A stretch of DNA of 64,000 nt from an uncultured Bradymonadales bacterium (GCA_964503485.1 CAZDBH010000003.1:678-64677), one strand, 5' to 3'; positions 1 to 29,619 are shown, numbered from the stretch's first letter. The notes: generated by a model from the letters alone, not told the origin. Made by a program: numbers and translations.

Positions 1-762
1 ATCCAGGGCGGCGTTCTGAGAGGCGAAGTGGCTGACGTCTTGCTGATTGACGTCACACCGTTGTCCCTGGGTGTAGAAACCCAAGGCGGTGTGTTCACCA
101 AGCTCATCGACCGAAACTCGAAACTGCCCTGCTCCTCTTTTCAGGTGTTCAGTACGACGGTCGATAATCAATCTCTGGTTACCGTGCACGTTCTACAGGG
201 AGAGCGGCCACTGGCGGCAGACAATCACTCCTTGGCCAGATTCGATCTCATCGGAATTCCCCCGGCCCCTCGTGGTGTTCCCCAGATCGAAGTGAAGTTC
301 GCGATCGATGCCAATGGCCTGGTCTCGGTAGAAGCGACCGAGCTCGGTACCGGGAAGAAACAGTCGGTTGTCGTGACCGCGACCGGTGGCCTCAATGAGG
401 AGGACATCGACGAGCTGGTCGCGCTGGCCGACCAGCGAAGCGAAGACGATCGGGAACGGCGTGCTTTGGTGGAGCTAAGAAACCGAGCCAAAGGCCTGAT
501 CTACACCACGGAGCGAAGCCTAGTTGAGTACGCCGAATTTGTCGGTGTGGATGCGCTTGATATTCTGCAGCAGGAACTTGCGCACTGCTCCGAAGTAGTC
601 GGCAGAAAGCACGCTCTACCGGACGAGCTGCAAGAGGCCATCAACTCTTTGGAGGACGCGGCACACCAACTGGCCGACATGCTCTATCAGGAGATGTCCT
701 TTGACGATGACGGGGAGACCTACGACGACGAAGGTCCGGGTGAATACGAACAAGATATGTAG
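1..762 (+). CDS. dnaK: Molecular chaperone DnaK (Hsp70), C-terminal substrate-binding and lid region. Partial CDS; the 5' end lies outside the window.
   Basis: Frame 1 reads IQGGVLRGEVADVLLIDVTPLSLGVET.. without a start codon, the hallmark DnaK beta-sandwich region. It continues to an acidic EEVD-like tail and a stop at 760-762. Confidence 0.9.
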   Translation: MQGGVLRGEVADVLLIDVTPLSLGVETQGGVFTKLIDRNSKLPCSSFQVFSTTVDNQSLVTVHVLQGERPLAADNHSLARFDLIGIPPAPRGVPQIEVKFAIDANGLVSVEATELGTGKKQSVVVTATGGLNEEDIDELVALADQRSEDDRERRALVELRNRAKGLIYTTERSLVEYAEFVGVDALDILQQELAHCSEVVGRKHALPDELQEAINSLEDAAHQLADMLYQEMSFDDDGETYDDEGPGEYEQDM

Positions 763-1942
763 CCTGCTCGCCTTCGCGACCTGCCTTTTAGGCTATCACA
801 CAGCCGAAGCCCAAGTCCCGACCTCCCCTCGTATCGGCGTGATCCTACCACTCTCCGGCGACCACGCTCACATTGGGGAACAACTCCTGGATGCCATCAC
901 ACTCGCATTGGAGGATGCGCCCGGTGTTGTCTGGACCGTTGTCGATTCCGGCGGAACCGAAGAAGGCGCCAGGGAACGCGTTCGGGAGCTCACCGGGTTC
1001 CCTGATTTGCTCGCGATCGTCGGCCCAGTAGGGGCCAATGAATCGAGGGCGGCAGCGCAGGAAGCAGAGGTCATTGGCGTCCCCATTTTAACGTTGACCA
1101 GTCAGGACGGGATCGAAGACTTGGGGCCTATGACCTTTCGTTTGCGAGTCTCCCCCGAGGAACAGTCGCGCTGGATGGCTCGGTTCGCTGCAAATGACCT
1201 CGGGGTGGAGCGTGTCGCGATTCTCTACCCCGAAGACGAGTTCGGGAGGTCGTGCATGCGGGCATTTCTCGAGGCGCTCGAGGGCTCCTCGGTTCGGGTG
1301 GTGGGGGTGGAGTCCTACGAACTCGATGAAACCGACTTTGGGGATCCAGTAGAGCTGCTTGTGAATCGTCGTTACCGACAGATACGAATCGAGCCCTTTC
1401 GGCACGAGCCGCGAACTCGGGTTCGGCGTTTATCGCACACCAGCGATGTCGATTTCGATGCCATCTTCATCCCGGAGTTCGATCGCCAAGTCGGCCTCAT
1501 CGTACCGTTCCTAGCCTTCTGGGACGTCCCGATGGATCGTATTACACGCCTTCTAGGCCTCTCGAGCTGGGGTGGTGCCGGCCTTGCTAAGTCCGAAGAC
1601 CTCATCGAAGGCGCGACCTTCACGATGGTCTATCACGAGTCCCTCTACAACTCGGACGCCGAACGCTTCGCCCGCGCCTTTCGAGAAGCCTATGAGAGGG
1701 ACCCTTCTGAGGCCGAAGCTCAGGCATTCGACGCTGTCGGGATACTTCTCGAAGGGGTTCGGCCCTCATCCGCGACGCCGGCAACCCGGCTGAGTCTTGC
1801 TGCATGGCTTCGCGGTGGTCCGCGGCATCGCGGTGCGACGGGCGATTTGTCGATTTCTACAGATGGTGCGGTGGTCCACGACCTATCTCTCTTTGCGACC
1901 GACTCGGCTGGTTATATTTCACCGTGGATACATCTCCGATGA
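740..1942 (+). CDS. Periplasmic ligand-binding protein of the type-1 PBP fold (LivK/LpoA-like), secreted.
   Basis: ORF 701-1942. A signal-peptide-like segment (KICSLLAFATCLLGYHTAEAQ) is followed by IGVILPLSG..G, typical of Leu/Ile/Val-binding-protein and LpoA-like folds. The GTG at 740 with an upstream GAAGG avoids a 62-nt overlap with dnaK, so the start is uncertain. Confidence 0.55.
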   Translation: MNTNKICSLLAFATCLLGYHTAEAQVPTSPRIGVILPLSGDHAHIGEQLLDAITLALEDAPGVVWTVVDSGGTEEGARERVRELTGFPDLLAIVGPVGANESRAAAQEAEVIGVPILTLTSQDGIEDLGPMTFRLRVSPEEQSRWMARFAANDLGVERVAILYPEDEFGRSCMRAFLEALEGSSVRVVGVESYELDETDFGDPVELLVNRRYRQIRIEPFRHEPRTRVRRLSHTSDVDFDAIFIPEFDRQVGLIVPFLAFWDVPMDRITRLLGLSSWGGAGLAKSEDLIEGATFTMVYHESLYNSDAERFARAFREAYERDPSEAEAQAFDAVGILLEGVRPSSATPATRLSLAAWLRGGPRHRGATGDLSISTDGAVVHDLSLFATDSAGYISPWIHLR

Positions 1943-2021
1943 CTGCCTTGGATACGTCCCCGATAGAGATCGCGGCGCTTGAAGCTATTCCTGTCTCTCG
2001 GAATATCGTGTAGAAGCAGGC

Positions 2022-2951
2022 ATGGATTCGTCCCCCCAACTCGAGGCCGCTCCCCCGAAAAAGGACAGACGCTGGCTCCATTACCTCCTGTTCGGACTGA
2101 CCCTGGCGTCGACGCTCTATTTTGGTTTTGCGATGAGCGAAGGGTTCTATTTCGGGGCTGGCGGTACAGAAGGCGTCGTGCCCAGCTTTCCGTTGGTTGC
2201 TTTCGGCGCTGCGAGCTACTGCCTGTCGATCATGGGCATCCTTCTCGCACACGAAATGGGTCACTACCTGACCGCGAAAAAGTACGGTGTGGACGCGACG
2301 CCCCCGTTTTTTATCCCCATGTACACCATCTTCGGGACGATGGGGGCTTTTATACGAATGCGTGTGACCGAGAAGGTCCGGGGCGATCACTTCATGAAGA
2401 TCGCAGCCTACGGGCCGTTGGCCGGTTTCGCGGTGACTGTGCCTGTGGTCTTCTTTGGCCTGGCTCTCTCGTCGGTCGGTCCCGCGCCGGTCGATGGTGG
2501 CTCGGGAATGGCGTTGGGGGATTCCGCCCTCTTCCTGCTTTTCGAACCGATCTTCTTTAGCGAGCTACCGGCTGGGTACGACATTTGGCTGCACCCAATG
2601 GCCTTCGCGGGCTGGGCTGGCCTGTTCGTGACCGCGATCAACCTGATACCGGTCGGGCAGCTCGATGGCGGTCATATCTCCTATTGTCTTTTCGGCGAAA
2701 GTCACAACCGGGTAGTGCCTCTGGTTTTTGGCGGCTTTCTGGCCGTAACGTTTTTCGTTTTTGCAGGTTGGGTCGCGATCTGTATCTTCGTGTTCTTGAT
2801 GGGAATCAAACATCCTCCCCTTTGCACTGGGTTGCCGGTGGGGGGAGTGAGTCGAAGAATTGGTGTGCTCACCGTTGTAGTTTTCTTCCTGTCCTTTACA
2901 CCGATTCCTTTCGAGGGCTTTCCGTCTTTGTTGGAGATGCTTGCCCCATGA
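2022..2951 (+). CDS. Peptidase M50 (site-2 protease family) integral membrane zinc metalloprotease.
   Basis: Multiple predicted TM helices, an HEMGHY (HExxH) motif inside a helix, and a later LDGG motif. Confidence 0.8.
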   Translation: MDSSPQLEAAPPKKDRRWLHYLLFGLTLASTLYFGFAMSEGFYFGAGGTEGVVPSFPLVAFGAASYCLSIMGILLAHEMGHYLTAKKYGVDATPPFFIPMYTIFGTMGAFIRMRVTEKVRGDHFMKIAAYGPLAGFAVTVPVVFFGLALSSVGPAPVDGGSGMALGDSALFLLFEPIFFSELPAGYDIWLHPMAFAGWAGLFVTAINLIPVGQLDGGHISYCLFGESHNRVVPLVFGGFLAVTFFVFAGWVAICIFVFLMGIKHPPLCTGLPVGGVSRRIGVLTVVVFFLSFTPIPFEGFPSLLEMLAP

Positions 2952-3715
2952 AATTCGAGTGCGAAAGCTGTGGTCAGTTAGCCGAGGCCGCCAGTCTCGG
3001 CGTCGAGGACGGCCAAGTCGTCGTCAAATGTAGCCAGTGCGGAGCGATCAACCGCCCCGAATCCAAGGCCGGCAGCGGTCCCCACGAGGCCGCCCCCCTG
3101 GCCGAACAGCGAGAAGAGGTTGCCACCGGCAGCGTCTCGACCTCGGCGGAACCCGTCGAGGAAGAGCCTGAATCACACAGCCAGCCGGGCCCGGTTCGCA
3201 TCCACCACGACGAGATCAAGTGTCCGAAGTGTTTCCATACCCAGCTCGTGCGCTCCAATTGTGCTCGCTGTGGTCTGGACTTGAGTCAATCGGACCTGGA
3301 CAAAGCGCGGTGGGAGCCAGATCCATCAGGCAAGGAAGAGGCCTATGCGCGAGCGCTGGAGCTCTGGGCGCAGATAGAGATATCGCCGGGCGAACGCCAA
3401 CAGCACGAACGGTTTGTGTCTCACTGCACGAATCACCATCTTCTGGACCTGTGTACTAGGCGCTATCGAGAATGGATCTCGGAGAGGCCCGGCGACGAGC
3501 CTGCTACAGAATTCATGATGGTCGCTGTTCAGCGTATGGAGAAAGTGGCACTCGCGATGATGGGTACCCAGGCTTGGGCCGAGAATCTCAAGGACCGCGT
3601 GGCTTCAGTAAGGCGCTTGCTACTGTTTGTTTCGGTCGTGTTGGTCGTGCTCGGGTTGGCCCTGCTCTTCTTGATCATGAAAAAGAAACAAGAGGTACTT
3701 CCCGTCGATCTGTAG
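2948..3715 (+). CDS. MJ0042-type zinc-ribbon protein with a C-terminal transmembrane anchor.
   Basis: The ATG at 2948 overlaps the upstream stop (ATGA). MKFECESCGQ..CSQCGA forms a CxxC..CxxC ribbon and a second CPKC..CARCG pair follows. The terminal LLLFVSVVLVVLGLALLFLIM forms a TM helix. Confidence 0.55.
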   Translation: MKFECESCGQLAEAASLGVEDGQVVVKCSQCGAINRPESKAGSGPHEAAPLAEQREEVATGSVSTSAEPVEEEPESHSQPGPVRIHHDEIKCPKCFHTQLVRSNCARCGLDLSQSDLDKARWEPDPSGKEEAYARALELWAQIEISPGERQQHERFVSHCTNHHLLDLCTRRYREWISERPGDEPATEFMMVAVQRMEKVALAMMGTQAWAENLKDRVASVRRLLLFVSVVLVVLGLALLFLIMKKKQEVLPVDL

Positions 3716-3784
3716 CCTTCCGGTATGACTGATTCGGTGCCATAATGCTTGAACGACTTCAGCCAAGCGGTCGGTAGGAAACGA

Positions 3785-4471
3785 ATGGTTCAGTTCAATC
3801 TGAAAAAGCGCGAAGTTGCAATCAAGATCGTTTACTACGGCCCGCCGTTGAGCGGCAAAACCACGAACCTGCAAGCGCTTTTCGGAGAAGCCGACAAAAT
3901 GTCTCGTGGCCGGCTGGTCACTCTCGAGACACGCGACGACAGAACGATCTACTTCGACATGTTGCCGGTTGTCCTGTCCTCTCGCTCCGGCCATCGTCTG
4001 ACCTTCAAGCTCTACACAGTACCCGGGCAGCCGGTGCACAATGCGACCCGTCGAGTCGTGCTGCGGGGAGTGGATGGGGTTGCGTTTATTGCCAGCAGCG
4101 AGCGCAATGAGCTCGAGAACAACACACTGTCGTGGTCGAACCTATTGGAGAACCTCGAGGCCAATAACCTGAAAATTCAGGACGTCCCGGCGGTCATCCA
4201 GTTCAATAAACAAGACCTGCCAGACGTCCTTACGGCCGCCGAAATGAAGGCCGTGGAACGTTATTCCGGTGTACCGACCTTCGGAGCCACTGTCATTCGC
4301 GGAGAGGGGGCGTACGAAACCCTCAATGGGCTGCTGTTGCGGCTCTGGGATCAACTCTGTGAACGGCAGAACCTCGACAAGCGGCTCGGCTTGACCAAAG
4401 AAGAATTCGCTTCACACGTCAAAAAAGTCTTTGGAAAATCGTTAAATCCCTATGGACGACCTGGGTTCTGA
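3785..4471 (+). CDS. mglA: MglA-family Ras-like small GTPase (paralogue of the mutual gliding-motility protein A).
   Basis: IKIVYYGPPLSGKTTNLQ is the P-loop. RDDRTIYFD carries the intrinsic Arg finger and YTVPGQ the catalytic Gln. NKQDL is the G4 box. It aligns along its length to M. xanthus MglA. A start at 3749 is also possible. No Roadblock/LC7 (MglB) gene is adjacent, so it may be a paralogue rather than the true mglA. Confidence 0.7.
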   Translation: MVQFNLKKREVAIKIVYYGPPLSGKTTNLQALFGEADKMSRGRLVTLETRDDRTIYFDMLPVVLSSRSGHRLTFKLYTVPGQPVHNATRRVVLRGVDGVAFIASSERNELENNTLSWSNLLENLEANNLKIQDVPAVIQFNKQDLPDVLTAAEMKAVERYSGVPTFGATVIRGEGAYETLNGLLLRLWDQLCERQNLDKRLGLTKEEFASHVKKVFGKSLNPYGRPGF

Positions 4472-5828
4472 AATAAGCGTCTCCCTCGCGGAAGTCGTTC
4501 ACAAAGACCGCGAGCTCTTTCAAGAGGTTTGCCAGAGCTATGTCGATCTGTATCGAGTAGCGGTGAAACTTCTCGACAACCAGGGTAGCCGACTGATGGA
4601 CATCCCCAGTCGCGCCGAGCTCTGCCAGTATATCTATGGCTTCCAGACCTGCCGGCTGGGATGTGTTCGCACGGTAAACGCGATCCGATTCCACGAACCG
4701 GCCTTTCAAACAGTGGAACAATCCGTCTGTTTCAGCGGCGCAGAGTACCGAATCGTCCCAATCCACTATGCTACTGACGTAGTTGGCAAGGTCGTCTTCG
4801 GACCGTTTCTGCCGACCACTGTCACGGGCCCTCCAGCGCACTTCTTGGCCATGGATCCGGGTCTGGACGCACGAGCCGCATGGGAAAAAACCGTGCGCTT
4901 CCGAAAGATGAGCCCCACTCTCGCCGAAAAGGTAGCTCGAAACCTGGCGACCGTGATCGAGGTGATGTCGTTTGTCGGTTTCAAGGGGCAGATGACAACC
5001 GATATGCACGTCGAATCGATAACCGAGGCCTACGCGGAGCTCGAAGCGAAGAACAAAGCACTCGAAGCATCCGTTCATACCCTTCAAGGCCTCAACGAAG
5101 AACGCTCGACCTTCCTCGCGAGAATCAGCGATCAGGTCAAGAAGCCGCTCACTAATCTCATCGGATATGCAGAAATGTTGGCCGAAGGAATCGGCGGCGA
5201 CGTTACCGAGGATCAGACCGAGTTTCTCGGGACGATGATCGCCCAAGGCGAACTGATTCTCGGTCTTGCTGAAACGATGGATGAGTTGTCCCTGATCGAG
5301 CGAGGTCAGATCAACATCGCCCCCCATTCGGCGTCGATCGAAGAGCTGCTCATGTCGGTCTTGGACTTTGGGCAGAAGCAAGGCGAGCTACACGACGTCG
5401 AGGTCGAGATTCTCCCAGCCGATCCAGACCTGCCAAAGCTGTGGGTCGACGAAGACAGAATCCGCTCGATTCTGCTGAGAATCATCGACAACGCTGTTAA
5501 GTTCACCCCCGCTGGCGGTCGAGTTGTGATTTCGGCCTTTGGGGAGGACGACATAACCGATGGCGATCCTGTGCCACCCGGCTTCGTCGCATTAGCTGTA
5601 ACCGACAGCGGAATCGGCGTGTCCCCGGCCTATCACGACCAGCTCTTTCACCCGTTCTACAGTGTTCACGGCGCCGAGTCCGCATACACCGGAACGGGCG
5701 TTGGTCTCACGATTGCGGCCGCCTATGCCGAGGCACACGGCGGCAAGATACTCGTGCAGAGCAAGCCAAACGCCGGCTCGACGTTTAGCATCCTCCTGCC
5801 AACCAGTCCGTCGAGTTCACTTCCTTAG
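4452..5828 (+). CDS. Sensor histidine kinase with a Cys-containing N-terminal sensor domain (PocR-like?), HisKA and HATPase_c domains.
   Basis: The H-box is ERSTFLARISDQVKKPL. The N box (IIDNAVKF), G1 (DSGIGV) and G2 (GTGVGL) motifs are present. It overlaps the MglA-like gene by 20 nt. The N-terminal 190 aa are soluble and carry four Cys residues. Confidence 0.8.
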   Translation: MDDLGSEISVSLAEVVHKDRELFQEVCQSYVDLYRVAVKLLDNQGSRLMDIPSRAELCQYIYGFQTCRLGCVRTVNAIRFHEPAFQTVEQSVCFSGAEYRIVPIHYATDVVGKVVFGPFLPTTVTGPPAHFLAMDPGLDARAAWEKTVRFRKMSPTLAEKVARNLATVIEVMSFVGFKGQMTTDMHVESITEAYAELEAKNKALEASVHTLQGLNEERSTFLARISDQVKKPLTNLIGYAEMLAEGIGGDVTEDQTEFLGTMIAQGELILGLAETMDELSLIERGQINIAPHSASIEELLMSVLDFGQKQGELHDVEVEILPADPDLPKLWVDEDRIRSILLRIIDNAVKFTPAGGRVVISAFGEDDITDGDPVPPGFVALAVTDSGIGVSPAYHDQLFHPFYSVHGAESAYTGTGVGLTIAAAYAEAHGGKILVQSKPNAGSTFSILLPTSPSSSLP

Positions 5829-5831
5829 CTG

Positions 5832-6812
5832 ATGTCTGAGTTCTCGAACATCGATATCTTCGTAGACCGTCTTGGCGGAAGGGGCTCCTTTGGAGGTGTA
5901 GAGATCGGAAGTGGCGACGACGCCGCTGTTCTTCGAGGAGGGACCTGGCCAGTCGTGTCGGTCGACACGCTGGTCGAAGGTGTTCACTGGGATGAGAAAT
6001 ACTCGAGCTGGGAGGATGTGGGGTACAAATTGTTGGCCTGCAACCTGAGTGATATGGCCGCGATGGGTGCCATTCCAGGGCCCTTCTTGTTGGCGCTCAG
6101 TCTGCCCTCGGCACAGGACGCCGACCTAGCACGTCGGCTGGCCGAAGGCCTGGCCATGGCGCGGGAACCCCACGGCCTGAAAGCTGAAATGGTCCGCCCG
6201 ATTGGGGGAGACTTGACCCGAAGTCCGGGCCCGGCGGTCCTTTCCTTAACCCTTTTCGGACAACCCGGACCTGGCGAGCGCCTTCTGCTGAGGAGCGGCG
6301 CCCGAGTTGGCGACAGTATCTGGGTATCAGGACGCCTTGGCCTCTCCGCCAGTGGCCTTGCGGTTCTCGAAGCAGGCTGCGATCCACAACCGTTCGAAAG
6401 GGCGATTTCTCGTCACCGGCGTCCGGCGGCTCGGCTGGAGCTGGGTCTTGCGCTTGCTGAACATGCAGGGGTCAGCGCCGCCATCGACATCAGCGACGGC
6501 ATCGGCGGCGATCTCCCACATATTCTGCGGGCATCGGGCGGCCTTGGTGCGACCATCCGGGCGGACGACCTTCCGATCGCGGACGAGACCGAGCGCGCTG
6601 GGTCCATTCTCGGACTCGATCCGCTGGAGCTGGCGATTGGGGGCGGCGAGGACTTCGAGCTCTTGGTTACAGCAACGTCCGACGAAGACGCCAACCTGAC
6701 GGCGTTGGGATTGACACCTATCGGGCGCGTTGTGGAAGAGCCGGGCATCACTTACACTGCTCGAGGGGGGAAGCTATCGAATCACGTGATTTTTGGCTAC
6801 CAACACGAGTGA
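5832..6812 (+). CDS. thiL: Thiamine-monophosphate kinase (AIR-synthase-related fold).
   Basis: DDAAVL...VVSVDTLVEGVHW and a later ISDGIGGDL match the ThiL/PurM-like signature. Length 326 aa. Confidence 0.75.
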   Translation: MSEFSNIDIFVDRLGGRGSFGGVEIGSGDDAAVLRGGTWPVVSVDTLVEGVHWDEKYSSWEDVGYKLLACNLSDMAAMGAIPGPFLLALSLPSAQDADLARRLAEGLAMAREPHGLKAEMVRPIGGDLTRSPGPAVLSLTLFGQPGPGERLLLRSGARVGDSIWVSGRLGLSASGLAVLEAGCDPQPFERAISRHRRPAARLELGLALAEHAGVSAAIDISDGIGGDLPHILRASGGLGATIRADDLPIADETERAGSILGLDPLELAIGGGEDFELLVTATSDEDANLTALGLTPIGRVVEEPGITYTARGGKLSNHVIFGYQHE

Positions 6813-6818
6813 CCCCAG

Positions 6819-7766
6819 ATGGAGTACGGACTTCAGAGCGAAGGGTTTGCGTCAAGCTACGCCGCTGACGTAGCCCCGAAGTGGGACAAGGAACTCTGCG
6901 ACGCACTTCGGCCCTACCTGGCCCACGTCGACAATGAGAATGCGCTTGCGGCCGAGTGCCGCGCTGGGCAAATCTGCGACCTCATTTTGGAGTCCGTCGG
7001 AACCGGGCGGGTAATGGCTGTCGATCCGTCCCGAGAGATGCTCGATGTGGCGCGGGGCCGTCTCGCCGAACGGGACGGGCAGTCTGTGTTCTTCAACTGC
7101 CAGTCGACCACCAATCTCAGCTACGCAGGTGGCGTCTTTGGACGTGCAGTATGTCTGGCCGCACCGCTCACCAGGAAGAAGGCCAATCTCGTCGTGGGCG
7201 AACTCAATCGGGTTGTGAAGCCCGGTGGTCTCCTCGCGATTGCGGCACCGGTTTCGGGAACCGACGTGTTTCTCGACCTCCTAGTCGAATCGATCTGCGC
7301 CTGCGCGGCCCTCAACGAGAGATTGCTCGAGGACGTCGAGGCTTTTCGGAACGATCTGGTCAGCGCGGAATCACTGTCTGATTCCCTCGAGCGCCGGGGA
7401 GCCACGGTTGTGGCCAGCGGTCAAATCGACGCCGTGGCTCAGATCAATTATCCTCAAGCGCTCTACTTCACTCCCCTTCTGCAACACCTTTTGCTGCCAC
7501 ATTGGTTGGACGTGGTTTCAGTTCCAGCGCAGCGGAAAGAGCTGATGCAGGACGTCATTAAGAGGGTGCAGCACTACTTCGAGGGTATGGACCTGTCGAT
7601 CACAATCAGCGGCGCTTGGATCGTCGCCAGTACATCCGAAGAGCGACACGAAGAGATCTACGAGATCGAGGACCTCGATGTCGCCGAGGTCGAAGAGGCT
7701 GTGAGCGTCACCTCGAGAGACCTCTTCGATCCGCTGGATGACGACGCACACGAGCCGCCGCTGTGA
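6819..7766 (+). CDS. Class I SAM-dependent methyltransferase-like protein.
   Basis: ILESVGTGRVMAVDPS resembles motif I and VKPGGLL resembles the post-I/motif II region. The call is weak. Confidence 0.45.
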   Translation: MEYGLQSEGFASSYAADVAPKWDKELCDALRPYLAHVDNENALAAECRAGQICDLILESVGTGRVMAVDPSREMLDVARGRLAERDGQSVFFNCQSTTNLSYAGGVFGRAVCLAAPLTRKKANLVVGELNRVVKPGGLLAIAAPVSGTDVFLDLLVESICACAALNERLLEDVEAFRNDLVSAESLSDSLERRGATVVASGQIDAVAQINYPQALYFTPLLQHLLLPHWLDVVSVPAQRKELMQDVIKRVQHYFEGMDLSITISGAWIVASTSEERHEEIYEIEDLDVAEVEEAVSVTSRDLFDPLDDDAHEPPL

Positions 7767-10700
7767 TACCGAACGACCCAGCCAATCTCCGGCCGGGGTC
7801 TCTATTTGCAGGCCGGTATGTCATTCAGTTGAGAGTGGCCACCGGACCCCTATCAGTTGTCCATTTCGCCAGACGTACCGACACAGGACAGCGGGTCGCG
7901 ATCAAATGCCTGCGGGTTGACCGTATAGCCGACGCGGACGTCAGTCGCAGCTTCCGTTCCGAGTGTTTGGTGGCCTCTGGATTACGACATCGAAACACAG
8001 TCCAACTACTCGACTATGGTGCCACCGGTGGCATCCCGTATCTGGTTATGGAAGCCGTGCTGGGATCCAATCTGGGCGGTGTGCTCAAGACGGGAGGCAA
8101 ACTTTCCCCACAACGCGTGACACGCATCGTCAAACAGGTTCTGGATTCGCTCGAAGAGGCGCACAGCCTCGGAGTCCTACACCGCGACATCAAGCCAACC
8201 AACATCATGTTGGCTCAACACCCGTTCGAGAAGGACTTCGTCAAAGTCCTCGACTTCGGGACCGCCACGACGGTGGGCGCTGCAGCCTCGACCCCCTTGG
8301 CAGGGACACCGCTCTACATGGCTCCCGAGCTTACTCAGGGGACGTCGGCGAGCATCGGAAGCGACTTGTACTCGCTGGGCTGCGTGGCATACGAGCTCTC
8401 GGTTGGCAGACCGCCGTTCGAGGGTGAGTCGGCGATCGATACAATGATGATGCACGCCAAGGAGCCTTTTCCTTCGCTGCCCAACGACCTCCACTCACCC
8501 GCTCTGGTGGAGTTCATACAGTGGACTACTCAGAAGGACCCGACTTCGCGTTTGAGGGACGCTCGGACGGCCAGATTGACCCTGACGGGTGAGCGCCAGT
8601 TTGCAACCTTGCCACCGCCCCTATTCCATCGTTTTGGGCAGGTACCCGCAGTCCCGCTCAAAGCCGGAGAGACCTTGAGAGCGGTCGAGGTGGAGAGACG
8701 TGATGACTCCAACCGGCTGTTACGCGCGGTGGTTGAGGCCGTCGACTCGCCTCTTCCGACCTTTGTGTTCCTGACCGGATTGTCGGGTTCGGGGGTAAGT
8801 AGATTGGCAAGCGACGTGCTGGCTCTGGACGCTATCCAGAGACGAGTCGAGGTGAAGTCCGCTCGCTGTTGGCCGTCGAAAACATCCGAAGGCAAGCCAC
8901 TGGCGAATGCCTTCGCAGAGCCAGACGACGGCGATCCGCTTTCGAGGCTCGAAATGGCCACACGGCTGTGGGATAGGGCAAAGGAAAGGCCCTCGCTCCT
9001 GTTCTTGGACGAGATTCATCTTGCTGACGAGCTTACGCTCGGAATACTGGAACGCTGGCTCCATAAGGGTCGGGGAATCCCCCAGAATCTCACAGTGGTG
9101 GGAACGGTTCGTCTGCACGATCCGCGTACCAATCGCGGCTTCGATCAGATCTGCGGCCGCCTCGTGGGCCGATGGGCCCAACATCTGAGAGTCATCTCGA
9201 TCGAGAACCCGCCGGTATCGCAGGTGGGTGAGCTCGTATCCGAGACGTTCGGACCGTCAGACCAAGCAAAGCAGATCCTGTGGAATCTGACCCGTGGCCA
9301 TCTGCATTACCTGACCCAACTCTACCATCACTGCCACCAAGACCGCTCAGCGCGAATGGCGGTGGCGACCATCACCAAAACCACCGGCGCCAGAGGTCCA
9401 GAACTGCGAATGCCGACCAGTTTTCGCGATCTCGTAATCCGGCGGCTTGCGTCTACTCGAACCGAATCGCCGGGCCTCCACTATACGTTGCTCGCGCTCG
9501 CGGTGCTGGGCGGGAGCGCACGTGTAACCAAGCTCGACGAGATGGCAAAGGCTCTGCCCGACCAAGAGGAGGGCCTCTTCAGCCTCGATGATGTCGCCGA
9601 CTACGTTTCGCTCGGTTGCTCGCTCGGCTTACTAGTGGATGAGAGCACTGGTCACGAAACGCGCGTCCGGCTTGCCAACGACGCACTGTTCGAGGTCATC
9701 GTCTCGTCGATGATCGACAGTGGCCAATGGCAGACCGCCAACCTGAAAGCGGCACAAACTGCGCTGAGTACACAGCGAGGTGCATTCGGCCAACATTCTA
9801 CCTCGGCGTTTCACGCTCTCATCGGCGGAAACGTCGCAGAAGGATGCCGGCAGTTGATTCAAGCCTCTCACACCGCCCGTTCTGGCGGAGATCTGGTGCA
9901 CGCCGGCCAGCTTCTGGAGCTGGCCCACTTGCGTGCCGAGGCGGCAGAACTCTCGCCGCAAGAACGTCTACAGATCATGTTGCTGCTGGCCGAAATCAAA
10001 CGAACCTCGGGGGTCTGGGGAGCAGCCCAAGACTTGTTTGAACGAGCCCTCGAGTTCCCGCATACCGAGGACGACTCGGAACGCCGGTTGCGTTTGCGGC
10101 TCGATCTCGCCGACGTGATGATCTCCCGGGGCGACTTAGAGAACGCGAGGGAGCAACTGAGTTCCGCGCTGGGTGCAGCTGCGGAGCTGGAGCGATTCGA
10201 CCTCGAGGGGGAAACCTCTTTCCACCTCGGCAAGCTCGAAGCAGAGGCCGGCAATCCGGAACAAGCCCAGAGCCTATTTCAGCACGCTAGATTGCTGTTG
10301 AGTCAACAGGGCGATCGTGACTGGCTTCTGAAGATCGATGTCGCTCTCGCAAACTCACTCTTGGAGAGTGGGCAGAACACAGCCGCTCAGCAGTCCCTTT
10401 CACGGGTCGACGAGTCCGCGATCGCCCAATTGGGTGGCACTGTCGAGGCGTCGTTCTTTCACATCAGAGCGAAGTTGGCGTTGCGGTCAAAGGACTACTC
10501 CAAGGCCAAAGAGGACCTCCGAGCGGCGGTCAAGTTGAGGCAGGCCGCGGGGGAAGATCGACAACTCGGTCGATTGATCATGGACCTGGCCTGGACGTAC
10601 TTTCGAGAGGGCAGCTATCAGCGTGCTGCCCGGAGCGCAGCCAGCGCTGCCCGGAACTTTGCGATCGTCGACTATGCCTCCGGAGAATCGGCCGCTCGAG

Positions 10701-11347
10701 CGCTGCTGATCCGCGCCTCCTACCAGAGCAGGAACTTCAATGATGTGATCGACGGGGCGGAGGAGGCCTTGAGCTTGAGTGAATTCGTGGACAACACGGT
10801 CGAGTGGGCCTCAACCTCCCATTTCGCGTGTCGTGCTGCGCTCCGTGTGGGGTCCAGCGAGGAAGCCCTGAGGCATGCTCAGAACCTCAATGGTCATGTC
10901 GAGCAACACGGTCTGGAAAAACTCCGAGCTGCCGCGACACTCGATCTGGCTGACAGCCTGTTTTGCAATGGTAGATTCGAGGAAGCTCGCGGTCAGGTCG
11001 AGGCCGAATCGGCCGCGTTAGTTGCCCAGCCGTGGGCGACCGAAGCCGCCTTCCTGAGATTGCGCCTGGCCATTCTGGACCGACCGGCCGATATCGAAGC
11101 AGCTGCCGGCTTGGTCCTGTCACAACTCGACTCAGTCGACCCGTATGCCGATCTCGAGGGAAGGCTGCTCTTGGCCTTGTCAGCGGAACTCGGTTGGGCT
11201 GGGTGTCCGGGTGACAACCCGACTCGCCTCTTCGACCTATCAAAGCAGCCAGGCTCAGATCCAGCGGCAACACTCGACTATCTCTTGGGGTCTCATGCTT
11301 CAGATCAGGTCGAACACGCCCGACAGGCGGTGTTGAGGAAACTCTAG
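7763..11347 (+). CDS. Ser/Thr protein kinase fused to a STAND-type NTPase domain and C-terminal TPR-like repeats.
   Basis: Kinase motifs are VAIKCL, HRDIKPTNIM, DFG and APE. A central P-loop-like segment (FLTGLSGSGVSRL) and a Walker B (LLFLDEIH) follow. The C-terminal about 500 aa are alpha-helical repeats. The start overlaps the upstream stop. Confidence 0.8.
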   Translation: MIPNDPANLRPGSLFAGRYVIQLRVATGPLSVVHFARRTDTGQRVAIKCLRVDRIADADVSRSFRSECLVASGLRHRNTVQLLDYGATGGIPYLVMEAVLGSNLGGVLKTGGKLSPQRVTRIVKQVLDSLEEAHSLGVLHRDIKPTNIMLAQHPFEKDFVKVLDFGTATTVGAAASTPLAGTPLYMAPELTQGTSASIGSDLYSLGCVAYELSVGRPPFEGESAIDTMMMHAKEPFPSLPNDLHSPALVEFIQWTTQKDPTSRLRDARTARLTLTGERQFATLPPPLFHRFGQVPAVPLKAGETLRAVEVERRDDSNRLLRAVVEAVDSPLPTFVFLTGLSGSGVSRLASDVLALDAIQRRVEVKSARCWPSKTSEGKPLANAFAEPDDGDPLSRLEMATRLWDRAKERPSLLFLDEIHLADELTLGILERWLHKGRGIPQNLTVVGTVRLHDPRTNRGFDQICGRLVGRWAQHLRVISIENPPVSQVGELVSETFGPSDQAKQILWNLTRGHLHYLTQLYHHCHQDRSARMAVATITKTTGARGPELRMPTSFRDLVIRRLASTRTESPGLHYTLLALAVLGGSARVTKLDEMAKALPDQEEGLFSLDDVADYVSLGCSLGLLVDESTGHETRVRLANDALFEVIVSSMIDSGQWQTANLKAAQTALSTQRGAFGQHSTSAFHALIGGNVAEGCRQLIQASHTARSGGDLVHAGQLLELAHLRAEAAELSPQERLQIMLLLAEIKRTSGVWGAAQDLFERALEFPHTEDDSERRLRLRLDLADVMISRGDLENAREQLSSALGAAAELERFDLEGETSFHLGKLEAEAGNPEQAQSLFQHARLLLSQQGDRDWLLKIDVALANSLLESGQNTAAQQSLSRVDESAIAQLGGTVEASFFHIRAKLALRSKDYSKAKEDLRAAVKLRQAAGEDRQLGRLIMDLAWTYFREGSYQRAARSAASAARNFAIVDYASGESAARALLIRASYQSRNFNDVIDGAEEALSLSEFVDNTVEWASTSHFACRAALRVGSSEEALRHAQNLNGHVEQHGLEKLRAAATLDLADSLFCNGRFEEARGQVEAESAALVAQPWATEAAFLRLRLAILDRPADIEAAAGLVLSQLDSVDPYADLEGRLLLALSAELGWAGCPGDNPTRLFDLSKQPGSDPAATLDYLLGSHASDQVEHARQAVLRKL

Positions 11348-11363
11348 AGCGCCCGGAAGGCCT

Positions 11364-12182
11364 TCACTCGCTAGCAAGAGGCTGAACGGTGACGTTGTAG
11401 GTCGCTCTCACCCTCGGGTTGTGGCTTCCGACGTAGATCCTCACCAGTCCTTCTGAGAACCAGGCATCAATGGCTGGGTTGATTGAACCGCGGCTGTCGT
11501 CATTGCAGAAGATGCCATCGGACGATTTGACCACCAGCGTCAAGTCGCTCGACGACTCGGCCAAGATTCCCAGGTGCGCGTCGCTCGACAGCAAAATCGT
11601 GTGATTGGCCTCTTCCGAGATTGCCCCCAAGCAGGCTGCTCCATGAACCTGTGCGGACTGATCGCCCCCGCTGGTTCCCTGCAGCCGAAGCGGTCTGCTG
11701 CCCGTGACTTCTGGGGCGAGCGGCCGACCGGTATGGCTCACCAGAACGGAGTACTCACCCGTGGCATCACTGCTGGTGGTGCCGACGTAAAGCGAATACT
11801 CCCCGATTGCGAGGTAGTTGGTTAGCGCCGGGTCGCGATTCGTCTCAGATGCGTCATCGTTGCAGAAGCCCAAGTTCCCACCGCCCAGAAGTAAAGTCGG
11901 ATCGTGGTCTCCGTCTGTTGTGACTTCGACGCGAATGACGCCCTCTTCGATCACATCGAGAAGGAACTGGGGTTGGCGCGATACATAGCCCGGACAGCCG
12001 TGGACGACGGATCCGGCTGAAACCTCGCCACCATAGCTACCCGAGAAGTTTCCAGTGAATCCCTCGCGCACGATGATCCGGGATGGCCCCGTCTGGGCAC
12101 TGGCCACACAGGCTATGACCGTTACAATCATCCAGATAGTGATCGATATATGAACTCTCAGGGAGCGAGTTCCGTGTTGCAT
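11364..12182 (-). CDS. Secreted protein with two internally duplicated PPC-like (pre-peptidase C-terminal) beta-sandwich domains.
   Basis: A signal peptide (ITIWMIVTVIACVASAQ) is followed by two repeats, each ending in LGFCNDD or GIFCNDD with DPTLLL / DLTLVV motifs. Confidence 0.5.
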   Translation of the reverse strand: MQHGTRSLRVHISITIWMIVTVIACVASAQTGPSRIIVREGFTGNFSGSYGGEVSAGSVVHGCPGYVSRQPQFLLDVIEEGVIRVEVTTDGDHDPTLLLGGGNLGFCNDDASETNRDPALTNYLAIGEYSLYVGTTSSDATGEYSVLVSHTGRPLAPEVTGSRPLRLQGTSGGDQSAQVHGAACLGAISEEANHTILLSSDAHLGILAESSSDLTLVVKSSDGIFCNDDSRGSINPAIDAWFSEGLVRIYVGSHNPRVRATYNVTVQPLASE

Positions 12183-27537: not shown

Positions 27538-28800
27538 GTGATGATCGTACAATGCCCAGGCTGCAACTCTCGCTACCGAGTTAGGGAAGAAAAACTGCCC
27601 TCAGGAGGCGGGAACATCGAGTGCCCGAGTTGTCACTCTATCTTCCCAGCTGCCCCTGCTAGCCGAGTCGCAGCGCCGAGAAACACCCTTCCCGGATCGG
27701 GCCCCAAGGCCACGGCCACCAATTCGCCTCCTCCGCTGCCCGAAGGCGCTGAGGCGGGTGCGACCGTTCTCATCGAACCAGGGCAAAGCGAAGGTTCGAC
27801 GACCTGGAAGATTCGGACTCCGGTCGGCCTTGTGTATGATTTTCCGAACTTGGCCGCCCTCAAGAACTGGCTGTCTACCCGTGACAGCGTCGCCGATATG
27901 GTGGCCAGCACCGACGAAGGCACCACCTGGCAAAACTTGACCGCTTTTGACCAGCTCAAGGGCTCGTTACCCAAAGGGGGTAGGGCCGCCAAGGGCGCCG
28001 AACCACCCGCTCTCTCCAAAAAGGAAGGGCTGGCAGAGGCCATGGACGCCGTTCTCAGCAATCGTAAGAGCACTGAGATGCCTGGGTTCCAGCCGCCTCC
28101 CAAAGCGGTTCAAAAGCGGCCAGACCCGAAGACTATGCTCGAAAAACCCCGTAGGGCGAGCGCACCAGCCCGTCCCGCCTCGAGGGGTCCCGGCCAAAAG
28201 AACCGGCCGGCCACAAAACCAACTTTCCAGAGAATTCGGACCGCTCCCGCTCAAGAAGGCGGGGGTTTCGGGGCCATGCTGGGCATCCTTATCTTCGGTG
28301 CCGTGGTCTTCGGATTCACAGCCCAACTGGCTGGAGTCGACGTACTCGGTAAGATTGGAATCACCAATTCCGACGCCCCAGAGGTTGGAGACGACCCAGC
28401 ACGCATTGCGCCGGCTCCGTCAGAAGCCCTGCCGCCGATCGATGAGGTCGAATGGGTCGTCGTAGATGACCCGTATGTTCCGAATCAGGTCAGTCCCCAG
28501 CGCCCGCTCGGCAACGCAACTGAGTCGATAGGACTTATCCAACAGGGTGTCAGTCCCACCGATGTGCGTGTTGCGGGTCTCATACAGGAGGCGCAGCGCG
28601 AGATTCAGCAGGAGAACTACGACACCGCCGCCCAACTGCTCGGAAGCGCCTCCCATCGCGCGCCGACAAACCCAGAACCCGTCTGCCTCCTGGCTGGCGT
28701 AAACCGGGCTCAGGGCCGAATCGTAGAGGCGCAGACTCTTGAAGAGCGCTGTACGGCGTTGCGCGCAGCTCAGTCGCAAACCGCTGCTCAACAGAACTAG
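27538..28800 (+). CDS. MJ0042-type zinc-ribbon protein with a DUF4339-like domain, a Pro-rich linker, a TM helix and a TPR-like tail.
   Basis: MMIVQCPGCNSRYRV...IECPSCHS forms the ribbon. WKIRTPVGLVYDFPNLAALKNWL...WQNLTAFDQLKGSL is the DUF4339-like segment. The TM helix is LGILIFGAVVFGF. Confidence 0.6.
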   Translation: MMIVQCPGCNSRYRVREEKLPSGGGNIECPSCHSIFPAAPASRVAAPRNTLPGSGPKATATNSPPPLPEGAEAGATVLIEPGQSEGSTTWKIRTPVGLVYDFPNLAALKNWLSTRDSVADMVASTDEGTTWQNLTAFDQLKGSLPKGGRAAKGAEPPALSKKEGLAEAMDAVLSNRKSTEMPGFQPPPKAVQKRPDPKTMLEKPRRASAPARPASRGPGQKNRPATKPTFQRIRTAPAQEGGGFGAMLGILIFGAVVFGFTAQLAGVDVLGKIGITNSDAPEVGDDPARIAPAPSEALPPIDEVEWVVVDDPYVPNQVSPQRPLGNATESIGLIQQGVSPTDVRVAGLIQEAQREIQQENYDTAAQLLGSASHRAPTNPEPVCLLAGVNRAQGRIVEAQTLEERCTALRAAQSQTAAQQN

Positions 28801-28815
28801 CTGGGAGACCAACGG

Positions 28816-29619
28816 TTGACCGAGGCCCCGCAAATCCGAATCGCCTGCCCGGAATGTGAGAGGAAGTACAAGATACCCGCCTCGTCGCTCACCGGGAAAC
28901 CGCGCACGCTCAAATGCTCGAGTTGTGGGCACACCTTTCCCCTGCGAGCCCCCAAGAGAGTCGGGCGAGAACCCTCGGGCTTCAGGGTGAAAGATCCAGA
29001 CGGACTCCAGGTCAGAAGCGTGCCCTCTCTCGATACGATTCGGCGACTGATTATCGAGGGCCAATTGTCGGGCGACCACCAACTGGCCAAGGCAGCAGAC
29101 GGACCTTGGCAGCGGCTCGGCGATATCGAGCAACTCAAAGCCTCGTTGCGAATGGCAAAGTCGGGCGAATCGAAGGCCGCTCAGCCTCAAGACAGTCCCC
29201 CTGAAAGTGAAGCGGGCGGAAAGGCGGTCGCAGAGGGCGAAAGTGAGCCAGTGCCGGTCCCTGCCGTCCTGTCAGAGCTGGCGGCGACTCCAGAGCCCGA
29301 AACAACCCCAATACCAGACAACAGCGACGAAGACCCCCAAACGGAACCTGTCGAAGAATGTGCCGGCAGTTCGGACGATGTGAGCTCGTCGGAAGCGGGC
29401 CTAAGTGATGTGACGGTCCCTACCGCGAAGGGTGGACAACCGGTCGAACCCGCGCCTCAGCCCCAAGCGGCACCTCAGCCCGAAGCCTCGCCCCCAAGCA
29501 CTCAACCACCGGCACAGGTGGCTAAGAAGGAGGGTGGCTCTCCCATCGCCATCCTGAGTATACTCGCTGCAGTCGCTGCGATTGTGGTCTTTCTGCTGTT
29601 CTATTTCGAGGTAATCTAA
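28816..29619 (+). CDS. MJ0042-type zinc-ribbon protein with a DUF4339-like domain and a C-terminal TM anchor (paralogue of 27538-28800).
   Basis: IRIACPECERKYKI...LKCSSCGH forms the ribbon. GFRVKDPDGLQVRSVPSLDTIRRLIIEGQL...WQRLGDIEQLKASL is the DUF4339-like segment. The TM helix is ILSILAAVAAIVVFLLFY. Confidence 0.6.
   Translation: MTEAPQIRIACPECERKYKIPASSLTGKPRTLKCSSCGHTFPLRAPKRVGREPSGFRVKDPDGLQVRSVPSLDTIRRLIIEGQLSGDHQLAKAADGPWQRLGDIEQLKASLRMAKSGESKAAQPQDSPPESEAGGKAVAEGESEPVPVPAVLSELAATPEPETTPIPDNSDEDPQTEPVEECAGSSDDVSSSEAGLSDVTVPTAKGGQPVEPAPQPQAAPQPEASPPSTQPPAQVAKKEGGSPIAILSILAAVAAIVVFLLFYFEVI

Follow-up and report, generated by a model that had tools for sequence, protein, structure and literature searches.

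What regulates a small GTPase of the MglA family that is encoded without mglB, and is the histidine-kinase-like protein encoded directly after it part of the answer? The question is raised by a locus in a stretch of 64,000 nucleotides (nt) from an uncultured Bradymonadales bacterium (GCA_964503485.1 CAZDBH010000003.1:678-64677), called here the window, in which the two genes overlap and are preceded by a gene for a membrane-anchored zinc-ribbon protein. An original prediction, made from this DNA alone, took the three for a switch of polarity or motility in which an MglA paralog is linked straight to a two-component kinase. Taken as a whole, the locus is best explained as the Bradymonadales-lineage form of an operon that pairs a SofG-type GTPase with a PocR-domain kinase-like partner, the latter being a probable direct regulator of the GTPase (probability about 0.6). 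In Myxococcus xanthus, only two small GTPases are known to organize the polarity of the type IV pilus (T4P) motors, and SofG is one of them. Its GTPase-activating protein (GAP), guanine nucleotide exchange factor (GEF) and upstream signals have been reported as unidentified (PMC4316618), and a literature search found no later paper naming them.

The three same-strand open reading frames (ORFs) lie where they had been placed. They are listed here with the parts of the GTPase and of the kinase-like protein.

2948-3715, plus strand: zinc-ribbon tail-anchored protein of 255 amino acids (aa), with two ribbons and a C-terminal transmembrane (TM) helix
3785-4471, plus strand: SofG-clade small GTPase (group-1 MglA family), 228 aa, from matches to MglA structures in the PDB, tree and motifs
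3839-3862, plus strand: GTPase P-loop GPPLSGKT, residues 19-26
3932-3958, plus strand: GTPase RDDRTIYFD with the intrinsic Arg finger, residues 50-58
4016-4030, plus strand: GTPase TVPGQ, residues 78-82
4205-4216, plus strand: GTPase NKQD, residues 141-144
4385-4435, plus strand: GTPase clade-specific C-terminal motif LGLTKEEF...
4452-5828, plus strand: cytoplasmic PocR-DHp-CA protein (a histidine-less pseudo-histidine-kinase), 458 aa, from Pfam PocR, HisKA and HATPase_c
Residues 19-174 of the 4452-5828 protein, plus strand: PocR domain (PF10114), E=8.9e-11, 42.3 bits against a gathering cutoff of 23.9
4530, 4623, 4650, 4662 and 4728, plus strand: Cys codons of the PocR domain (C27, C58, C67, C71 and C93)
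5130-5132, plus strand: Asp227 of the H-box, codon GAT
5487-5510, plus strand: N box
5604-5621, plus strand: G1 box
5691-5708, plus strand: G2 box

Assignment of the GTPase to the SofG clade

Judged by its motifs, the GTPase is a group-1 switch of the MglA family with its catalytic residues complete. The hallmarks of this group are a P-loop, an Arg adjoining the G2 Thr (the intrinsic Arg finger), TVPGQ at G3 and [NT]KxD at G4 (PMC4316618), and all are present, as GPPLSGKT, DDRT (Arg53 equivalent), TVPGQ and NKQD. Solved MglA structures are matched at about 45-48% identity across 180 residues (Thermus thermophilus 3t12, E=3e-47; M. xanthus 6hjh, E=2.5e-45), and the MglA hallmarks first read in this gene are thereby confirmed. 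Past the G domain, the protein carries a C-terminal extension of roughly 40 aa with a conserved GLxxxxF motif. This motif and TVPGQxxH, in which the His takes the place of a Tyr found in canonical MglA, are the signatures of the SofG clade.

The assignment was made with a neighbor-joining tree (Kimura-corrected distances, 181 G-domain columns, 200 bootstraps), from which the SofG sequence of M. xanthus DK1622 was absent and in which a Myxococcus protein, P0196, stood in for it. The window GTPase, P0196 and all other Myxococcota paralogs of 220-245 aa formed one clade in 195 of the 200 bootstraps, and canonical MglA (M. xanthus, T. thermophilus and the mglB-linked loci) fell outside this split. 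The description of the gene as an MglA paralog, for which grouping with SofG had been named beforehand as the contrary outcome, is therefore abandoned. Within the clade, the window GTPase sits in a deep subclade whose sole named member is from a Bradymonadales metagenome-assembled genome (locus L007, 67% identity); exact copies of the window sequence are found on six metagenome contigs.

How well P0196 represents SofG can be judged from its surroundings. It has 239 aa and shares 76% identity with the relative of the window GTPase in Archangium. Its gene neighbors in locus L031 are a divergent GNAT gene and a pair of T2SSE genes (568 and 368 aa); its 90% cluster contains Myxococcus fulvus proteins. 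Each surveyed Myxococcales genome has three group-1 members (Table S2, PMC4316618): a 195-aa MglA adjoining MglB, an orphan of about 230-241 aa, and a PATAN-linked protein of about 370 aa. The orphan is SofG in M. xanthus (MXAN_6703, with a corrected length of 239 aa), and its M. fulvus counterpart, LILAB_12945, also has 239 aa (PMC4316618). MXAN_6705 and MXAN_6706 are PilT paralogs, the former with a longer N-terminus (PMC13584747). Because of the synteny with MXAN_6704-6706, the length of 239 aa and the M. fulvus proteins in its 90% cluster, P0196 is taken, by synteny and length, to be the SofG ortholog. On the same grounds of clade and signature, the window GTPase is SofG-type, its lineage's copy of SofG and not a stray MglA.

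The GTPase was also said to lack an adjacent mglB, and this was borne out. No MglB match was found in the window by tblastn, with a probe (an M. xanthus MglB sequence) that finds MglB beside 26 MglA-family genes elsewhere and is validated solely by those matches. No Robl_LC7 match was found by Pfam in the window ORFs scanned (most long ORFs, plus mid-sized ones), and no mglB in any of 13 SofG-clade loci. The absence is expected, because SofG is not stimulated by MglB, its cognate GAP being reported as unidentified (PMC4316618). In its G-domain family and catalytic residues the window GTPase resembles the MglA of the MglA/MglB modules of M. xanthus and T. thermophilus; it differs from these modules in the missing Roadblock/LC7 GAP gene, the separate clade, the extra C-terminal extension and the His, not Tyr, after TVPGQxx. 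It differs further in the kinase-like gene that follows it, to which nothing comparable was found in 38 other MglA-family loci.

The likeness to M. xanthus SofG covers the clade, the length of about 230-240 aa, the GLxxxxF extension, the intrinsic Arg finger, TVPGQ and the lack of an adjacent mglB; in Myxococcus, too, the next gene downstream is this PocR kinase gene. However, the window GTPase is only about 47% identical to its Archangium ortholog and belongs to a deep, Bradymonadales-like branch; the PilT-paralog and GNAT neighbors of Myxococcus are not at the window locus, and the partner kinase there lacks its His.

A kinase-like protein without its phospho-acceptor histidine

The protein encoded at 4452-5828 had been described as a cytoplasmic histidine kinase whose sensor carries four Cys. 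Its cytoplasmic nature and its kinase domains were retained: no TM segment was found, and Pfam finds HisKA and HATPase_c (the latter with E=1.8e-22). The sensor, on the other hand, has five Cys and is a PocR domain, which Pfam also finds in the Myxococcus ortholog, and the phospho-acceptor His is absent. In an alignment of the window protein with more than 50 orthologs, its H-box reads ISDQVKKPL, with Asp227 at the phospho-acceptor site, where orthologs outside the window lineage have SHELRTPL. The His is missing from 11/11 distinct orthologs of the window lineage and is replaced by D, K, R, S, A, E or G: apart from the Asp of the window protein, Lys is found in L007, and nine more distinct proteins (P0236-P0246) have R, R, D, S, A, S, E, A, G or R at the site. 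In these proteins, conservation also fails at the adjacent H-box Glu and at the HisKA phosphatase-motif Thr, and no other conserved His was found in DHp across the window-lineage orthologs.

What the lineage keeps is equally clear. The Cys-bearing sensor and the dimerization helices are still present. The DHp flank PLTNLIGYAEML is retained, as are the N, G1, F and G2 boxes (DNAVKFTP, DSGIGV, FHPF and GTGVGL), and 82 other positions are invariant among the 11 proteins, whose pairwise identity is 35-84%. By this pattern, the ATP-binding domain is intact under purifying selection, and the gene encodes a maintained protein and is not decaying. The window protein cannot, as judged from the residues it lacks, be a canonical two-component histidine kinase. 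Since the lineage lacks the phospho-acceptor His together with the flanking catalytic and phosphatase residues, direct phosphorelay wiring is not possible there, and the claim that the GTPase is wired directly to a two-component kinase falls with it.

In the PocR domain, C58, C71 and C93 are common to Myxococcaceae and many other orthologs, and C67 is confined to the histidine-less lineage, which thus has four invariant Cys (C58, C67, C71 and C93). Most of the PocR Cys are lost in Polyangiaceae. A literature search on the ligand or Cys chemistry of PocR domains returned nothing usable.

A loss of this kind has a parallel in DivL of Caulobacter, which keeps the DHp and CA architecture and has a conserved Tyr in place of the phospho-acceptor His. 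By analogy, the retention of DHp-CA with a replaced His would imply signaling through protein-protein contacts and not through phosphotransfer. The two differ in that the DivL site is a conserved Tyr and the window-lineage site is variable (D/K/R/S/A/E/G), and in that the gene-order partner of the window protein is a small GTPase, not a response regulator.

Conservation of the GTPase-kinase pair in Myxococcota

On direct reading, the start codon of the kinase-like gene (ATG, 4452) lies inside the GTPase gene, and the two overlap by the 20 nt originally claimed, up to the GTPase stop at 4469-4471. To see how far this arrangement extends, loci from genomes and metagenomes and the Myxococcus locus L031 were pooled, and SofG-clade loci with enough downstream sequence were taken as informative. 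The metagenome scan added three SofG-clade loci and a sister clade, but not the window's own clade.

A full-length homolog of the PocR kinase stands directly after the GTPase in 13/13 informative SofG-clade loci (the window, L007-L012, L014, L015, L031, L032, L033 and L038), which span Bradymonadales, Myxococcaceae/Archangiaceae, Polyangiaceae and unclassified Myxococcota. The neighborhood conservation that the original prediction had proposed to examine is thus found. Where the junction is complete, the kinase start overlaps the end of the GTPase gene, by 1-40 nt (10/10 loci). Among the other MglA-family loci, none of 38 has a kinase match within 2.5 kb downstream, and 26 of these 38 have MglB. 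As read from gene order, the GTPase-PocR-kinase pair is an ancient two-gene operon of Myxococcota, of which the window holds the Bradymonadales-lineage version.

The genes around the pair are less constant. Upstream of the GTPase are found M50 and zinc-ribbon genes in the window and L007, a zinc-ribbon gene alone in L015 and L038, argH in Polyangiaceae, and GNAT and PilT paralogs in Myxococcus. Downstream of the kinase, thiL follows in nine loci (the window, L007-L012, L014 and L038) but not in Myxococcus L031.

The novelty claimed for the arrangement holds in part. No paper on the pairing was found, and in the same literature search the swap of kinase in the sister clade and the histidine-less variant were likewise undescribed; the original SofG study (Bulyha et al. 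2013) lay outside this search and may mention the kinase. The GTPase itself is SofG, already described and known to occur without MglB, so that its family and its orphan status are not new.

One SofG-clade member, at 4860-5540 of L015, has degenerate catalytic motifs, with DEHALFFN for DDRTLFFD and TVPSQ for TVPGQ, and may be a GTPase-dead variant by these residues. It is still preceded by the zinc-ribbon gene and followed by a kinase that has the His.

A sister clade with a different kinase

The sister clade comes from four metagenome loci, whose GTPases (217-233 aa) share the C-terminal motif and the G3 signature of the SofG clade; it joins the SofG clade in 167 of 200 bootstraps of a larger neighbor-joining tree. 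The four gene clusters are:

L034, 3394-8440: sister-clade cluster
L035, 57-6871: sister-clade cluster
L044, 3887-11568: sister-clade cluster
L058, 4558-11203: sister-clade cluster

In 4/4 loci the GTPase gene is followed by a kinase gene, either overlapping or with a gap of up to 56 nt. This kinase has AHEINNP as its H-box, does not match PocR and, in its catalytic half, shares only 24% identity with the window protein. Upstream are three REC-domain proteins, first one with a weak PAS match and then two with HD-GYP-type HD domains, and downstream of the kinase is a REC-MshEN-T2SSE (PilB-like) ATPase that ends in a double zinc ribbon. From its domains, this cluster looks like an undescribed module of cyclic di-GMP, phosphorelay and small GTPase around a pilus-type ATPase. 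Together with the SofG-clade loci, the sister clade shows that the order of small GTPase and then cytoplasmic kinase, in the vicinity of T4P-type ATPases, recurs, and this fits the reported role of SofG in positioning PilB and PilT (PMC4085708). The sister-clade loci have a lower G+C content and a non-myxobacterial look.

A related observation is that L043 (784-2376) holds a 530-aa ORF in which an MglA-like G domain, with a post-G-domain motif of the GL... type, is fused to a HisKA-like region. The HisKA match is weak (E=0.003, below the Pfam cutoff), and the region holds LAAILSHAELLL and ends, at the C-terminus, in kinase-like sequence. The ORF is offered only as a hint that GTPase and kinase may occur as a natural fusion.

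The zinc-ribbon protein and the M50 protease

The upstream gene had been counted as the third member of a tightly coupled unit, joined to the GTPase gene by an ATGA overlap. When the junctions were read directly, the overlap (2948-2951) proved to be between the stop of the preceding M50 gene (2949-2951) and the zinc-ribbon start (2948). Between the end of the zinc-ribbon gene (3715) and the GTPase ATG (3785) lies a spacer of 69 nt with AGGA in it. Translational coupling therefore applies to the GTPase and kinase genes, and the zinc-ribbon gene is translationally coupled to the M50 gene instead. The features concerned are:

2022-2951, plus strand: M50 (site-2-protease family) membrane metalloprotease, Pfam Peptidase_M50 E=8.7e-18
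2948-3052, plus strand: first zinc ribbon (ZnR1), residues 1-35 of the zinc-ribbon protein
3212-3283, plus strand: second zinc ribbon (ZnR2), residues 89-112
Residues 130-179, plus strand: TPR-like helices of the zinc-ribbon protein
3620-3676, plus strand: TM helix of the zinc-ribbon protein, residues 225-243, hydropathy peak 3.27

The description of this protein as a double CxxC zinc ribbon with a C-terminal TM anchor was accurate. Eight Cys (C5/C8/C28/C31 and C92/C95/C105/C108), forming two CxxC...CxxC ribbons, are invariant in 43 members of its family, which counts 282 cluster representatives, mostly of 210-300 aa and without annotation. An AlphaFold2 model (pLDDT 86) has an N-terminal ribbon, a disordered linker of low confidence whose sequence is not conserved, a second ribbon, a three-helix TPR-like bundle and a long helix ending in the TM segment. 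Foldseek of the model against the PDB gave no match with E<=0.001, only weak TPR-like ones, and Pfam found in the protein no anti-sigma (zf-HC2) or other function-specific family and no GYF. In a PDB profile search, the top match was the ZnR of GltJ/AgmX (7zok, E=3.3e-4).

The start-stop overlap of the M50 and zinc-ribbon genes is also found in Archangium (L008, 4802-6906), as GTGA there and ATGA in the window. This suggests, as far as gene order can, a conserved protease-partner or protease-substrate pair, and the zinc-ribbon protein is probably first of all a partner, and possibly a substrate, of the M50 protease, with a link to the GTPase as a secondary possibility. A zinc-ribbon homolog is directly upstream of the GTPase only in some lineages (the window, L007, L015 with a 5-nt gap, and L038); in Archangium two genes lie between it and the GTPase, and in Polyangiaceae and Myxococcus it is not upstream of the GTPase.

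The likeness to GltJ (AgmX) and to ZitP of Caulobacter lies in the N-terminal four-Cys ribbon, with Cys at 5, 8, 28 and 31, the disordered linker that follows it, and the membrane anchoring with the N-terminus in the cytoplasm. The window protein differs in lacking GYF and a periplasmic domain, in having a second ribbon and a TPR-like bundle instead, and in the coupling of its gene to an M50 protease gene. GltJ uses the linker that follows its ZnR to bind MglA-GTP, and the ZnR itself to recruit MglB (PMC11135422). Elsewhere in the window, two adjacent genes (27538-28800 and 28801-29619) encode proteins with N-terminal ribbons of the MJ0042/Zn_ribbon_4 type, one of them with C-terminal TPR. The ribbon type is thus expanded in this organism, which weakens the inference drawn from similarity to GltJ.

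Possible mechanism and alternative explanations

In the explanation favored here, the GTPase would act as a SofG-like polarity switch that probably positions polar machinery such as the T4P ATPases, by analogy with M. xanthus. The kinase-like dimer would sense a ligand, a metal or the redox state through PocR and bind ATP, and would probably act directly on or with the GTPase, as a regulator (GAP/GEF-like), a sensor of its nucleotide state or a localization factor. Phosphotransfer to a response regulator would be an accessory output, dispensed with in the window lineage. The zinc-ribbon protein might in addition be where the GTPase docks at the membrane, in analogy with GltJ. As a gene tied to sofG by a start/stop overlap across the phylum, the partner is a concrete candidate for a SofG regulator, and is a stronger one for the different kinase subtype at the same place in the sister clade, near a PilB-like ATPase. 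A more specific and tentative version holds that the PocR-DHp-CA protein is the cognate regulator or effector of SofG-type GTPases, in a conservon-like pair of sensor kinase and GTPase that is independent of response regulators and has no Roadblock protein. Under that version, the histidine-less lineage would show the core function most plainly, having discarded the His and kept the Cys sensor and the ATP-binding domain. The lineage would amount to a natural separation-of-function mutant: if the pair works there, its conserved job is independent of phosphotransfer, and the logic of a kinase-like sensor with a Ras-like GTPase, so far from actinobacterial conservons, would extend to group-1 MglA proteins. 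If the pair does not interact, the locus is an ordinary SofG ortholog beside a degenerate orphan kinase.

Several points weigh against this explanation. The interaction of GTPase and kinase is deduced from gene order, which alone cannot show it, and thiL is nearly as conserved in position, so that tight synteny need not imply interaction. Most orthologs outside the window lineage keep a perfect SHELRTPL H-box, and the ancestral role may chiefly have been conventional phosphotransfer to a response regulator encoded elsewhere. The functions of SofG (binding of BacP, positioning of PilB and PilT) are known only for M. xanthus, and Pfam found no bactofilin or T2SSE/T4P ATPase gene among the window ORFs scanned.

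The main rival is an inherited gene order without interaction, as may hold for thiL: sofG, the kinase gene and thiL would have been passed on together, with the PocR protein sensing a metabolite and regulating something unrelated. The presence of a housekeeping gene, thiL, in the block in nine loci with no obvious functional link speaks for it, and the gene tree, which broadly tracks species groupings, is consistent with vertical inheritance. However, the kinase stays after the GTPase even where thiL and all upstream genes differ (Myxococcus L031; Polyangiaceae with argH), the start/stop overlap is kept in all 10 junctions, and the sister clade's different kinase subtype at the same place argues for selection on the GTPase-kinase pair, which makes this rival rather unlikely. 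Signaling by phosphorelay from a functional two-component kinase to an MglA-paralog polarity or motility switch, as first proposed, could appeal to the HisKA and HATPase_c matches, the 20-nt gene overlap, the SHELRTPL kept in other Myxococcota orthologs and the position of the sister clade among REC-domain genes. It is the least probable of the readings and highly improbable: various residues stand in for the His in the window protein and all 10 other distinct orthologs of its lineage, the adjacent Glu and the phosphatase-motif Thr are not conserved, Pfam found no Response_reg domain and hence no response-regulator gene in the window ORFs scanned, and the GTPase is SofG-type, not an undescribed MglA paralog.

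Two further readings move the emphasis to other proteins. In one, the key partner is the zinc-ribbon tail-anchored protein, a GltJ-like membrane receptor or switch that makes one module of the three genes. The Cys positions of ZnR1, the 7zok match, the binding of MglA-GTP and MglB by GltJ and the homologs directly upstream of the GTPase in L007, L015 and L038 favor it. Its coupling to the M50 gene in the window and Archangium, its absence upstream of the GTPase in Polyangiaceae and Myxococcus and its distance in Archangium, the commonness of the ribbon type (two more in the window), the lack of GYF and the weak Foldseek matches to TPR-like folds all count against it, and it is doubtful. In the other, the GTPase would be the organism's sole MglA-family protein and do the job of MglA without MglB, as in Bdellovibrio. 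An orphan MglA is known in Bdellovibrio bacteriovorus (PMC4316618), and searches of the 64 kb window turned up neither a second MglA-family gene nor mglB. The SofG-clade signatures, the synteny and the canonical mglBA that surveyed Myxococcales genomes have besides the SofG-type gene (Table S2, PMC4316618) make this improbable.

Comparison with conservons

The closest functional parallel to a SofG-type GTPase with a kinase-like partner is found in the actinobacterial conservons, which combine a kinase-like sensor with an MglA-family GTPase and no response regulator, the GTPase being proposed as the output (PMC4316618; PMC13343842). Both put an MglA-family GTPase and a kinase-like sensor protein into one operon. 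The differences are several: the conservon GTPases (CvnD) are group 2, with GTPGQ and without the Arg finger, whereas the window GTPase is group 1; the Roadblock protein CvnB and CvnC are always present in conservons, whereas the neighbors in the window are M50, the zinc-ribbon protein and ThiL; and CvnA is a HAMP-containing membrane protein, whereas the window kinase-like protein is soluble with a PocR sensor. Membership of the conservon class was ruled out for the window locus, which has no Roadblock protein or CvnC and a group-1 GTPase with Arg finger and TVPGQ.

Neighboring genes and other MglA-like loci

By ORF calling and domain scans, positions 1-12,000 of the window are a single run of same-strand genes, in which the following surround those already listed:

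28-762, plus strand: C-terminus of DnaK
701-1942, plus strand: LppC/Peripla_BP_6 lipoprotein
5832-6812, plus strand: thiL (thiamine-phosphate kinase), TIGR01379 E=4e-74, starting 3 nt past the kinase-like gene
6819-7766, plus strand: methyltransferase
7763-11347, plus strand: Ser/Thr kinase with AAA and TPR regions

The retention of thiL after the sofG-kinase pair in most Myxococcota lineages has no obvious reason. A few genes past the pair, the window (7763-11347) and Myxococcus (L031, 13693-16554) each encode a large Ser/Thr kinase with TPR repeats; no match was found in L007.

MglA-like G domains also occur as N-terminal modules of larger proteins, in L028 (9081-13490), L023 (10001-11239) and L056 (3711-5615). 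One of these joins its G domain to a Ser/Thr protein kinase (1469 aa), and the others have long coiled-coil or membrane-anchored extensions.

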